A DNA stretch of 64,000 nt from Escherichia coli (GTDB taxonomy: Bacteria; Pseudomonadota; Gammaproteobacteria; Enterobacterales; Enterobacteriaceae), in NCBI RefSeq assembly GCF_044324785.1, contig NZ_CP172127.1; one strand, given 5' to 3'. A program made the position numbers. Positions 60,001 through 64,000 of the stretch are shown in pieces. The first letter of the stretch is position 1, and the number at the start of each line of letters is the position of its first letter.

Positions 60001-63000
60001 CTGACCATGTGCGGGATGCTGGCTGGCTCCATGACCGATCCACCGGCGCTGGCGTTTGCTAATAATCTTCATCCAACGAGCGGTGCGGCGGCGCTCTCTT
60101 ACGCCACTGTCTATCCGTTGGTGATGTTCCTGCGCATTATCACCCCCCAATTACTGGCGGTGCTCTTCTGGAGTATCGGTTAACTCTTCTCCGGGTGGAG
60201 TCGCCGTAAATGGTACTCCACCTGGTATTCGCTGGCATTTCTGAACATCACTGAATAATTCAAAAACTCCCCGCTCTCGCTATATGACAACGAGGTGATC
60301 CGCAGCAGTGGCGTGTGCTCCGCTACCTTCATTTGCCGCGCCAGCAGTCTATCGGCGAGCACCGGCGTCAGGCTTTCATAATTACCGCCAATCAGAATCC
60401 CGCACTCTTGTTCAATATATTCAAACTTCGACCCTTCCAGATGTTGCAGCGAAAGGTTACGGAACAGTTTTACCGGCATATAGCTGTCTTCCAGCATCAG
60501 CGGTTTCCCTTCCACAAAACGAACGCGACGGGAGAAGTAGATCTGCTCGTTGATTTGAATCCGTAACTGGCTGGCAATGGCCGGAGGCGCAGGCATGATT
60601 TCAAAAATCAGCACCTGGCTGGTGACAGTTTTTCCCTGCCGTTTTAACACCTCCACCAGCCCGGTCAGGCTGGCGGTTTGATGCAGTACATCTTTGCGCA
60701 CCAGGTAAGTGCCGCTACCGTGGCGGCGGACCACCAGCCCCCACGCTACCAGCAGGTCAATGGCTTTACGGATGGTCATCCGCGATACCGCAAACTCTTC
60801 CGCCAGCTTTTTTTCACCGGGAAGAAGGCTGTTTAGCGTGAAATCCGCGGAGTTAAGTCGAATTCTTAACCGCTCCGCAATGCTTTTGTAGATCATCTCT
60901 AGATCTCTTTTTTGCCTGCAGGCCCGGGTAATGCGCCCACAAGTTCTGCTTAATCGATTGAAAAAACATCTTTTTTTTAAAGATGTGTTCGATGCTGTGT
61001 ACCAGTGCTCACAGATGTCTACTTTTTTGCGAAAACGTAGATCTCTACCGCCCAACGAAAAGCATGAAAGCGATCACGAATCCCACTGGGTCGTCATGTT
61101 CTGCCGATCGCATCTTCCTATCCTCGCTCCAGGCCTGCCGCATAACCAATCAGGCTTCCTACTTACAGAATTGAGAAAAGAGGATGTGGAAATGCTCAGT
61201 CAAATTCAACGCTTTGGCGGCGCGATGTTCACGCCAGTGCTGCTGTTTCCCTTCGCCGGAATTGTGGTGGGTCTTGCCATCTTGCTGCAAAACCCGATGT
61301 TTGTCGGGGAATCACTGACCGATCCGAACAGTTTATTCGCGCAAATCGTACACATTATTGAAGAGGGCGGTTGGACGGTATTCCGTAATATGCCGCTGAT
61401 TTTTGCTGTCGGTTTACCCATTGGCCTTGCTAAGCAAGCACAGGGGCGTGCTTGTCTGGCGGTGATGGTGAGTTTCCTGACCTGGAACTATTTCATCAAC
61501 GCGATGGGAATGACCTGGGGAAGCTACTTCGGCGTCGATTTCACTCAGGACGCGGTGGCAGGTAGCGGGCTGACAATGATGGCGGGGATTAAAACTCTCG
61601 ATACCAGCATTATCGGCGCAATTATCATTTCCGGCATTGTGACGGCGCTGCATAACCGCCTGTTCGATAAAAAACTGCCGGTGTTTCTCGGCATTTTCCA
61701 GGGGACGTCTTATGTGGTGATTATCGCCTTCCTGGTGATGATCCCCTGCGCCTGGCTGACGTTGCTCGGCTGGCCAAAAGTACAAATGGGGATTGAATCT
61801 CTGCAAGCGTTCCTGCGTTCGGCGGGTGCGCTTGGGGTCTGGGTTTACACCTTCCTCGAACGTATTCTGATCCCAACCGGTTTACACCACTTCATCTACG
61901 GACCGTTTATCTTTGGTCCGGCAGCTGTTGAAGGCGGCATTCAGATGTACTGGGCGCAGCATCTGCAAGAGTTCAGTTTGAGCGTCGAGCCGCTGAAATC
62001 GTTGTTCCCGGAAGGCGGTTTTGCCCTGCACGGTAACTCAAAAATCTTTGGTGCCGTGGGCATTTCTTTAGCGATGTACTTCACTGCCGCACCGGAAAAT
62101 CGGGTAAAAGTGGCGGGCTTGCTGATTCCCGCAACCTTAACCGCCATGCTGGTGGGAATTACCGAACCGCTGGAATTTACCTTCCTGTTCATTTCACCGT
62201 TGCTGTTTGCGGTACACGCTGTGCTTGCGGCCTCAATGTCGACCGTAATGTATCTCTTTGGTGTGGTGGGCAACATGGGCGGAGGTCTGATTGACCAGGT
62301 TTTACCGCAAAACTGGATCCCGATGTTCAGCAACCACGCGGATATGATGCTGACCCAAATCGCCATTGGGTTGTGCTTTACCCTGCTGTACTTCGTGGTT
62401 TTCCGCACCCTGATTCTGCAATTCAACATGTGCACGCCGGGACGTGAAGATGCGGAAGTGAAACTCTACTCAAAAGCCGAATATAAAGCCTCGCGAGGCC
62501 AAACCACCGCGGCAGAGCCAAAAAAAGAGCTGGATCAGGCTGCCGGTATCCTGCAAGCCCTGGGCGGGGTCGGCAATATCTCCAGCATCAACAATTGCGC
62601 GACGCGTCTACGGATTGCACTGCATGACATGTCACAAACGCTGGATGACGAAGTCTTTAAAAAGCTGGGAGCGCACGGCGTCTTCCGTAGTGGCGATGCC
62701 ATTCAGGTGATCATTGGTCTGCATGTATCCCAGCTGCGTGAACAGCTCGATAGCTTAATTAATTCTCATCAATCAGCAGAAAATGTTGCCATTACGGAGG
62801 CAGTATAATGACCAAATTCTCAGTGGTTGTCGCAGGCGGTGGAAGCACCTTTACGCCAGGCATCGTGTTGATGCTCCTGGCGAATCAGGACCGTTTCCCG
62901 CTTCGTGCACTGAAATTTTATGATAACGATGGCGCGCGGCAGGAAGTCATTGCTGAAGCCTGTAAAGTCATCCTTAAAGAGAAAGCGCCGGACATTGCGT

Positions 63001-64000
63001 TTAGTTACACCACCGATCCTGAAGTGGCGTTCAGCGACGTTGATTTTGTCATGGCGCACATCCGCGTCGGCAAATACCCGATGCGCGAACTGGATGAAAA
63101 AATCCCGCTGCGCCACGGCGTTGTTGGACAGGAAACTTGCGGACCCGGCGGAATAGCGTACGGCATGCGTTCCATTGGCGGCGTCCTGGAACTGGTGGAT
63201 TATATGGAAAAATATTCACCAAATGCCTGGATGCTCAACTACTCCAACCCGGCAGCCATTGTCGCAGAAGCCACGCGTCGTCTGCGCCCGAATGCGAAAA
63301 TCCTCAACATCTGTGACATGCCAATCGGTATTGAAAGCCGGATGGCGCAAATTGTTGGGCTGCAAGATCGCAAACAGATGCGCGTGCGCTACTACGGCCT
63401 GAACCACTTTGGCTGGTGGACATCAATTGAAGATTTGCAGGGTAACGACCTGATGCCCCAGCTGCGGCAATATGTCTCGAAGCACGGTTATGTTCCACCG
63501 CAGCAAGATACACATACTGAAGCGAGCTGGAACGACACCTATGCAAAAGCGCGGGATGTCCAGGCACTGGACCCGGATACATTACCAAACACCTATCTGA
63601 AATATTATCTCTTCCCGGATTATGTCGTTCAGCATTCCAACCCTGAACATACCCGCGCGAATGAGGTGATGGAACATCGCGAGAAACAGGTTTTCGATGC
63701 TTGCCGCGCCATTACGGCGGCAGGAAATTCAGCGGCGGGCAAGCTGGAAATTGACGAACATGCGTCATACATCGTCGATCTGGCGGCGGCAATTGCCTTC
63801 AACACCCAGGAGCGGATGTTGCTGATTGTGCCTAACAACGGGGCAATTCATAACTTTGATGATGAAGCGATGGTCGAGATTCCGTGTCTGGTCGGGCACA
63901 ACGGACCAGAACCACTGGTGGTCGGCGATATCCCGCAGTTTCAGAAAGGGTTAATGAGTCAGCAAGTGGCGGTGGAAAAACTGGTCGTGGACGCCTGGGA

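Follow-up and report, generated by a model that had tools for sequence, protein, structure and literature searches.

In E. coli K-12, the glv genes have a reputation as cryptic, which raises the question of whether the corresponding genes at the end of the 64,000-nucleotide stretch of E. coli DNA analysed here (hereafter, the window) encode a working alpha-glucoside pathway. A sequence-only reading had described a continuous 538-aa EIIC-EIIB ORF that overlaps a glycosidase ORF (TAATG) open to the end of the window, and the ORF list and the sequence agree with this description. We consider it likely that the window ends in an undamaged ancestral enterobacterial three-gene alpha-glucoside module, in which yidP is divergent from the EIICB-GH4 gene pair, and that this module functions as proposed below, which would give the strain a functional alpha-glucoside pathway.

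We first compared the window with the K-12 locus. In the K-12 MG1655 chromosome (NC_000913.3), glvC (368 aa) and glvB (161 aa) form two distinct CDSs, with glvG annotated as a pseudogene, in line with the statement of the earlier reading that these three genes are disrupted or regarded as cryptic. Alignment with the window, which is 98.7% identical to K-12 at the DNA level over the shared part of the locus, located only two disabling lesions in K-12, neither of which is present in the window. The first lesion is at EIICB codon 369 (62296-62298, plus strand), which is CAG (Gln) in the window and TAG (amber) in K-12 in the codon-by-codon alignment; the change, at window base 62296, is the one that splits K-12 glvC from glvB. 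The second is the deletion from K-12 glvG of a 508-bp segment that is retained in the window (63401-63908, plus strand; three-way alignment), where copies of the direct repeat GAACCACT mark its bounds (63401-63408 and 63909-63916). The NHFGW motif with His200 is encoded in this segment, and the K-12 deletion, which is out of frame, deprives the glucosidase of both the Mn2+-ligand histidine and the C-terminal domain.

The window covers the first 397 of the 440 codons of the glucosidase gene (62808-64000, plus strand; predicted end 64130), which corresponds to an intact K-12 glvG. Its ATG (62808-62810) shares one base with the EIICB stop codon and is preceded, about 9 nt upstream, by GGAGG, and the ORF stays open for 397 codons up to position 64000. 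The last 130 nt (43 codons and the stop) fall beyond the window, so that a disruption of the gene past base 64000 in the source genome would make the locus other than intact. We regard such a disruption as extremely improbable because a contig from assembly GCA_044163535.1, which is 100% identical to window positions 55192-64000 (8809 nt), holds the complete 440-aa ORF followed by yidL, and a 440-aa gene is likewise present in each of the four relatives inspected that retain the 508-bp segment. The glucosidase is thus predicted to be full length (440 aa), assuming that the identity with this contig continues past 64000.

The first gene of the pair (61192-62808, plus strand) runs from an ATG at 61192 to a TAA at 62806-62808 (538 codons and the stop, in both the ORF list and the sequence) and corresponds to unbroken K-12 glvC plus glvB. 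The mechanically called ORF extends upstream and is open to 60931; the real start is 61192, where ATGCTCAGTCAAAT with a GAGGAT ribosome-binding site (61180-61185) is conserved in nearly every one of the 19 other genera in the alignment. The protein matches TIGR02005, the model for alpha-glucoside-specific PTS IIBC components, with 957.4 bits (E 1e-288; curated cut-off 607.3 bits) over residues 2-523 and model positions 1-524. In the Pfam scan, PTS_EIIC (residues 10-346) and PTS_EIIB (residues 453-482) scored far above the cut-offs in a single chain with a continuous reading frame, and no EIIA domain was found in that chain. The motifs GLHH (230-233), GITE (322-325) and NCATRLR (at 468, with Cys469) are present, and we take the GITE, HH and EIIB Cys motifs to have the functional meaning known for the glucose family. 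The protein is 81% identical to its K. pneumoniae ATCC 13883 orthologue, AglA. On these matches, the predicted product is an alpha-glucoside-specific PTS EIICB permease of the AglA/GlvC type, in which the EIIC and EIIB domains are fused.

For the second gene, a PDB search with the predicted protein returned the solved 6-phospho-alpha-glucosidases 6dux (835 bits, E 1e-250) and 1u8x (686 bits, E 3e-205), both aligned end to end, the latter over 395 residues; 6-phospho-beta-glucosidases reached at most 175 bits, and the alpha-glucosidase AglA 55 bits. In the 440-aa protein of the identical contig, Pfam identified Glyco_hydro_4 (PF02056, 224 bits) and Glyco_hydro_4C (PF11975, 190 bits), both far above the cut-offs. 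No NCBIfam model was passed by the part encoded in the window (397 of 440 codons), so that the glucosidase is identified by Pfam, the PDB matches and orthology, including 90% identity to K. pneumoniae ATCC 13883 AglB. GGGS (10-13), C169, D170, H200 and Y263 are all present, as is every other motif checked in the permease and the glucosidase, and the four residues correspond to GlvA C171, D172, H202 and Y265 with an offset of +2 in the 1u8x alignment. From the GlvA structure, we take these to be the NAD+ motif, the Mn2+ ligands (Cys and His) and the catalytic Asp and Tyr. The family matches of both proteins are far beyond chance, and the predicted product of the second ORF is a GH4 6-phospho-alpha-glucosidase of the AglB/GlvA type.

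The pathway that we propose begins with the EIICB protein, which would import an alpha-linked glucoside, such as methyl-alpha-glucoside, isomaltose or a sucrose isomer (palatinose, turanose, trehalulose, maltulose or leucrose), and phosphorylate O-6 of its glucosyl residue via Cys469 of the IIB domain. Given that the permease lacks a IIA domain, its phosphoryl donor would be the general PTS chain, that is, EI, HPr and EIIA-Glc (crr), encoded elsewhere; crr lies outside the window. The 440-aa GH4 enzyme, which is translationally coupled to the permease and dependent on NAD+ and Mn2+, would then cleave the phospho-glucoside to glucose-6-phosphate and the aglycone. We infer this substrate range by analogy, from orthologues that are 81% (permease) and 90% (glucosidase) identical. 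A functional locus with a substrate other than those of AglA/AglB, be it maltose (the case of B. subtilis GlvA/GlvC) or an alpha-glucoside from a host or plant, appears very unlikely. The permease falls short of full identity with the Klebsiella protein, and heterologous GlvA/GlvC have a wider substrate range than expected (PMC5309279), but the high identity of the glucosidase, the gene order and regulator shared with Klebsiella and related genera, and the fact that maltose is already served by the E. coli mal system all argue for AglA/AglB-type substrates.

The gene divergent from this pair, yidP (60180-60896, minus strand; annotated under this name in K-12 and in strain 1190), encodes a 238-aa GntR/HutC-family regulator and candidate local repressor, with a winged HTH domain (GntR, PF00392, residues 3-64, 74 bits) and a UTRA effector domain (PF07702, residues 87-224, 107 bits). 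It adjoins the EIICB-GH4 pair divergently in 47 of the 48 gammaproteobacterial species loci, the sequence of the remaining one ending before the position of yidP, and this linkage holds without yidE and yidL in Aeromonas, Proteus, Serratia, Pectobacterium and Vibrio. Because of the conserved adjacency and the conserved boxes in the spacer, YidP is supported as the predicted local regulator of the EIICB-GH4 operon; the earlier proposal of this role is thus borne out, with the GntR and UTRA domains adding to the evidence.

The divergent control region between yidP and EIICB (60897-61191, 295 bp) contains conserved blocks in a 20-genus footprint. Next to the yidP start codon is a TAGATCTCT box (60900-60908; TAGACCTCT in most genera of the 20-genus alignment), and further along lies the inverted repeat GTCTAC-N14-GTAGAT (61017-61042; GTCTA...GTAGAC in other genera), the arms of which are among the best-conserved intergenic columns. 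The half-sites of this repeat resemble what we take to be the GTCTAGAC core of HutC-family operators, and both the box and the repeat are candidate YidP-binding sites, the latter a candidate operator. YidP, as a HutC-type GntR protein, probably represses transcription at GTCTAC/GTAGAY boxes until a phospho-glucoside binds the UTRA domain. A palindrome at 60963-60989 was also considered as an operator and rejected, the stretch being absent or unconserved in other genera.

Closer to EIICB, the footprint includes a CRP-like site, CATGAAAGCGATCACG (61063-61078; 7/10 matches to TGTGA-N6-TCACA), seen across genera as the conserved block ATGAA-N3-GATCACGAA; this conservation suggests cAMP-CRP dependence. 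The hexamer TATCCT (61119-61124, plus strand; TATTCT or TATGCT in other genera), inside the conserved block TTCyTATnCTC, is a putative -10 element, and the start point that it predicts would lie about 60 bp downstream of the centre of the CRP-like site. A scan of 60850-61250 found no sigma-70 consensus promoter, good -35 element or terminator, so that the promoter assignment rests on the cross-genus footprint only, and a search of Rfam over 60000-64000 (E up to 1) returned only a sub-threshold chance snoRNA match and no known leader RNA.

These features bear on the main rival explanation, namely, that the genes are intact but transcriptionally silent, like bgl, asc and chb, so that the strain would be alpha-glucoside-negative until a regulatory mutation such as the loss of yidP. 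The missing sigma-70 consensus promoter is consistent with silence, as are the departures of the E. coli spacer from the cross-genus consensus, which affect the -10-like hexamer (TATCCT versus TATTCT), the repeat (GTAGAT versus GTAGAC) and the leader block. However, a good -35 element would be expected to be absent from an activator-dependent promoter, and it is usual for inducible catabolic operons to pair a weak -35 with a CRP-like site. Furthermore, the promoter-proximal part of the spacer (61037-61191) is nearly invariant within E. coli, with one variable position among six alleles. Among intact E. coli alleles, dN/dS is 0.00-0.06 for yidP, 0.00-0.04 for EIICB and 0.02-0.07 for the glucosidase gene, that is, 0.00-0.07 for all three, indicative of purifying selection. 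Such continuing selection implies that the genes would be expressed in some natural setting.

How widely the intact locus is distributed could be assessed across 5426 complete E. coli genomes. The earlier reading had implied that it is rare, which did not hold: the 508-bp glvG segment is kept in 1652 of these genomes (~30%), the K-12 deletion junction occurs in 2612 (48%), and the locus is missing in about 1150. The glvG deletion is therefore a common natural allele. At EIICB codon 369, the CAG allele is found in 3921 genomes and the amber allele (TAG) in 348 of the 5426; all 40 of the amber matches listed look like K-12-lineage or laboratory strains and, judged on these, the amber codon appears to be confined to the K-12 lineage. 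Every RefSeq record listed or inspected names the undeleted glvG as 6-phospho-alpha-glucosidase. The intact locus is thus already known, being publicly annotated and widely kept in E. coli, and is no new biology.

The phenotype of the species also bears on whether the pathway is ready for use. Classical identification tables score E. coli negative for acid production from alpha-methyl-glucoside and negative for palatinose, which agrees poorly with a pathway that 30% of strains could use constitutively and, with the glvG segment being so common, is consistent with silent genes. The one phenotype record found, that of DSM 30083T, likewise gives negative results for alpha-methyl-glucoside, palatinose, turanose and maltitol (PMC4334874), although this is a record of phenotype alone, whatever the glv genotype of that strain. 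BL21(DE3) has lost yidP through a natural, frameshifting 79-bp deletion with the structural genes intact, which also fits genes that are silent until their regulator is lost. A literature search on the phenotypes of intact-glv E. coli, natural glv variation and YidP function found nothing relevant, with neither growth nor expression results for intact-locus strains. Given the selection on all three genes and the near-invariant spacer, we consider silence rather unlikely and favour an inducible module, which presumably is expressed under suitable conditions.

Strains with the glvG deletion keep intact EIICB and YidP, and the same EIICB protein accession occurs in strains with and without the deletion. 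Because EIICB and YidP are intact in the 48% of genomes with the deletion, the permease alone could have a separately selected role, possibly in sensing, in the uptake of glucose or its analogues, or in regulation by titration of EIIA-Glc. It is conceivable, although we put this forward only tentatively and with considerable doubt, that the locus represents an old, high-frequency E. coli polymorphism for alpha-glucoside catabolism, hidden by the textbook phenotype, such that about 30% of strains, the present lineage among them, could grow on sucrose isomers and isomaltose once the operon is induced.

The 'cryptic' label thus fits K-12 and the strains that share its glvG deletion rather than the species as a whole, and K-12-based metabolic models and phenotype predictions accordingly miss a probable route for alpha-glucosides (isomaltose, palatinose and similar compounds) in about a third of E. 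coli. The practical value of the exact coordinates given here for both K-12 lesions is modest. Strains suitable for tests are at hand: BL21(DE3), with its broken yidP, and strains 1190 and 350, in which yidP, EIICB and the GH4 gene are all intact.

Among the known systems, the closest is K. pneumoniae AglA/AglB (6dux, 6dvv), which has the same order of permease and then glucosidase, an EIIC-EIIB permease without IIA and a 440-aa GH4 enzyme; related loci in Klebsiella and Raoultella also have a yidP-like GntR gene divergent upstream. According to the part of PMC5309279 that cites Pikis 2006, K. pneumoniae aglA and aglB suffice for growth of E. coli K-12 on methyl-alpha-glucoside, isomaltose and the five sucrose isomers, and AglA functions with E. 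coli EIIA-Glc. The Klebsiella pair is characterised, whereas the E. coli proteins are known by sequence; several conserved positions in the E. coli control region deviate from the cross-genus consensus, and the E. coli module is polymorphic (intact, deleted or absent).

B. subtilis GlvA (MalA; 1u8x) and GlvC (MalP) belong to the same two families, with about 74% identity for the glucosidase and about 60% for EIICB, and the glucosidases share the catalytic Cys-Asp, His and Tyr. However, the gene order there is glvA-glvR-glvC, GlvR being an RpiR-type regulator, the Bacillus loci have no yidP homologue, and the physiological substrate is maltose.

Within E. coli, K-12 glvC-glvB-glvG (b3683, b3682, b4556) sits at the same chromosomal locus, flanked by yidP and yidL, and differs from the window by the amber codon and the glvG deletion. 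The bgl, asc and chb/cel operons resemble the locus in combining a PTS permease, a phospho-glycosidase and a local regulator, and in their reputation in K-12 as cryptic. The K-12 copies of these operons have an intact structure and are silenced at transcription; in contrast, glv in K-12 is inactivated by structural lesions, which the window lacks.

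The permease gene, EIICB, a fusion equivalent to K-12 glvC and glvB, runs on the plus strand from an ATG at 61192 to a TAA at 62806-62808 (538 sense codons). The A of this stop is the first base of the ATG (62808-62810) of the glucosidase gene, the equivalent of K-12 glvG, which has a GGAGG about 9 nt upstream of its start and stays open on the same strand for 397 codons up to 64000, past the window end. Inspection of the sequence and of its listed ORFs showed the continuous EIIC-EIIB ORF, the TAATG overlap and the open family-4 glycosidase-like ORF, from which a sequence-only reading had proposed an intact glv alpha-glucoside PTS locus. 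The mechanical EIICB ORF is open upstream as far as 60931; ATGCTCAGTCAAAT, preceded by GAGGAT, is kept at 61192 in nearly all of 19 other aligned genera, and 61192, not 60931, is the real start. EIICB scores 957 bits against TIGR02005, the alpha-glucoside-specific PTS IIBC model (cut-off 607). In the Pfam search, residues 10-346 matched PTS_EIIC and residues 453-482 matched PTS_EIIB, with no hit to a IIA domain, and the motifs GLHH (at 230), GITE (at 322) and NCATRLR, with Cys469, are present. Exact look-up of the 538-aa protein led to a public contig (L003, GCA_044163535.1) that is 100% identical to window 55192-64000 and carries a 440-aa glucosidase gene ending in a normal stop. The genes yidL, yidK and yidJ come next on this contig, as they do in other E. 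coli. If this contig represents the same genome, the glucosidase is full-length, with no frameshift or stop past the window end.

The disruption of the K-12 genes, which that reading had cited as established, is evident in MG1655, which has one CDS for glvC (368 aa) and another for glvB (161 aa), and in which glvG is annotated as an 815-nt pseudogene. Window and K-12 align without gaps from 60900 to 63408 (98.7% identity), and codon-by-codon comparison located two disabling K-12 lesions. Codon 369 of the permease (62296-62298), CAG in the window, is an amber TAG in K-12 through a single C-to-T change, and 508 bp of glvG (window 63401-63908), flanked by direct repeats GAACCACT, are deleted, shifting the frame and removing the NHFGW motif with the Mn2+-ligand His. 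The K-12 permease additionally has P238Q. None of these K-12 changes occurs in the window.

Among 5426 complete RefSeq E. coli genomes, the locus is present in 4279 and absent from about 1150. The 500 bp missing in K-12 are present in 1652 and the K-12 glvG deletion junction in 2612; codon 369 is CAG in 3921 and TAG in 348 (the 36-mer probes for junction and codon were designed so that no 28-nt megablast word can match without covering the variant). Each of the 40 TAG genomes among the matches listed has a K-12-lineage or laboratory look (MG1655, DH1, C600, J53, MC4100, TG1 and similar), and the amber codon therefore appears to be restricted to the K-12 lineage. Wild strains of bovine, avian and human origin and STEC strains carry the deletion junction, and the glvG deletion is thus a widespread natural allele. 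The permease appears to be kept without its hydrolase in about 48% of genomes. The window, like BL21(DE3) and strain 350, is among the approximately 30% that keep the glvG segment, and RefSeq annotates a 6-phospho-alpha-glucosidase in every genome listed or inspected. The intact locus is a correct finding, but not a new one.

Several individual genomes illustrate this variation. Wild strains E2865 and 806883-11-2019 (contigs L085 and L086, both 1306-3736, equivalent to window 61192-64130) have the 508-bp K-12-type deletion, yet an intact 538-aa EIICB and yidP; the E2865 permease (WP_000952127.1) is identical to that of strains 1190 and 350, where the glucosidase is intact. In E. coli O111:H- 11128 (L087, 1607-3734), which matches the deletion-junction probe at 34 of 36 bases, the IS3-family element IS1203 lies within the glucosidase remnant, a second, independent disruption. 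In strain 1332KP (NZ_CM173849.1, 21986-22233; match H42), only half of the 500-bp segment matches and the feature annotated there is an RNA-guided endonuclease TnpB-family gene, which together suggest an IS200/IS605-type insertion in the glucosidase gene. Window 36000-58000 (22 kb of core genes, including dnaA, gyrB, yidC, mnmE and dgoT) best matches strain N3 (98.3%) among the complete genomes, with further matches at 97.8% or lower, and the glv region reaches 99.2% identity to a different set of strains; the source lineage has few close relatives among complete genomes, and its ancestry around the locus is mosaic.

The gene yidP (60180-60896, minus strand) encodes a GntR/HutC regulator with a UTRA domain, and its 3' end shares four bases with that of convergent yidE (plus strand, ending at 60183), as annotated in K-12 and strain 1190. 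In a survey of one genome per species followed by tblastn, 47 of 48 gammaproteobacterial loci have a yidP homologue (41-82% identity) directly upstream of the EIICB-GH4 pair and divergent from it, in genera including Citrobacter, Klebsiella, Raoultella, Kluyvera, Enterobacter, Serratia, Rahnella, Proteus, Pectobacterium, Brenneria, Aeromonas and Vibrio; the remaining locus ends before the yidP position. This linkage is kept in loci without yidE and yidL, and yidP, EIICB and GH4 therefore form one module; the same scan and tblastn found no yidP in Firmicute loci. We found no characterisation of YidP in the searchable literature. In BL21(DE3) (L083, 851-1488), EIICB and the glucosidase are intact and yidP is a pseudogene, frameshifted by a 79-bp deletion (window equivalent about 60639-60717), so that the glv operon of this strain may be naturally derepressed.

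Alignment of yidP-EIICB spacers from 20 genera revealed several conserved elements: a TAGA(C/T)CTCT block at 60900-60908, adjoining the start of yidP, an inverted repeat GTCTAC-N14-GTAGAT (61017-61042), a block ATGAA-N3-GATCACGAA (61063-61078) matching 7 of 10 CRP consensus positions, and a -10-like TATCCT (61119-61124). These blocks and the divergent adjacency support the proposal of yidP as a likely local regulator. The leader block (61130-61180), which separates the -10-like hexamer from the RBS, is conserved in most Enterobacteriaceae as AGGCC..AAGGCCTCT..CCCTACAGGTTGTTAC and has diverged in E. coli to CAGGCTTCC..TACTTACAGAATTGAGAA; six E. coli alleles differ at only one site across 61037-61191. 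The near-perfect palindrome AAAACATCTTT-N5-AAAGATGTGTT (60963-60989) lies in a stretch missing in short-spacer genera and unconserved in others. YidP may repress at the candidate GTCTAC/GTAGAY boxes, a phospho-glucoside would induce the operon, and CRP could assist expression through the CRP-like site.

Comparison of the intact alleles (those of the window, strain 1190, BL21 and strain 350, with K-12 added for yidP) gave a dN/dS of 0.00-0.06 in yidP, 0.00-0.04 in EIICB and 0.02-0.07 in the glucosidase, indicative of strong purifying selection on all three proteins. Against a readily visible phenotype count the failure of a spacer scan to find a sigma-70 consensus promoter, the departure of the E. 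coli -10-like hexamer and leader from the cross-genus consensus, and the typing of E. coli as negative for alpha-methyl-glucoside and palatinose. The only phenotype record found, taken irrespective of glv genotype, is that of DSM 30083T, negative on both sugars (PMC4334874).

The glucosidase has both GH4 domains (Pfam), and two solved 6-phospho-alpha-glucosidases, 6dux (E 1e-250) and 1u8x (GlvA of B. subtilis, E 3e-205), align with it over their whole length, with scores well above those of 6-phospho-beta-glucosidases and alpha-glucosidases. It retains GGGS at 10-13 and Cys169, Asp170, His200 and Tyr263, corresponding by alignment offset to GlvA Cys171, Asp172, His202 and Tyr265, whose functional roles are described in GlvA structure work. 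The sequence-only reading holds both in what it observed and in its interpretation that the strain may have a functional alpha-glucoside PTS pathway. The locus is an ordinary copy of a well-understood catabolic module, in the ancestral form that databases already annotate, and the damaged exception is K-12. The K. pneumoniae ATCC 13883 orthologues are 81% (EIICB) and 90% (glucosidase) identical to the window proteins. According to the summary of Pikis et al. 2006 in PMC5309279, the K. pneumoniae permease and hydrolase genes aglA and aglB are enough for E. coli K-12 to grow on methyl-alpha-glucoside, isomaltose and the five sucrose isomers, and AglA draws on host EIIA-Glc (crr); PMC5309279 also describes the K-12 homologues as cryptic or truncated. 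The E. coli background thus lacks only an intact permease and hydrolase, for both of which the window has genes.
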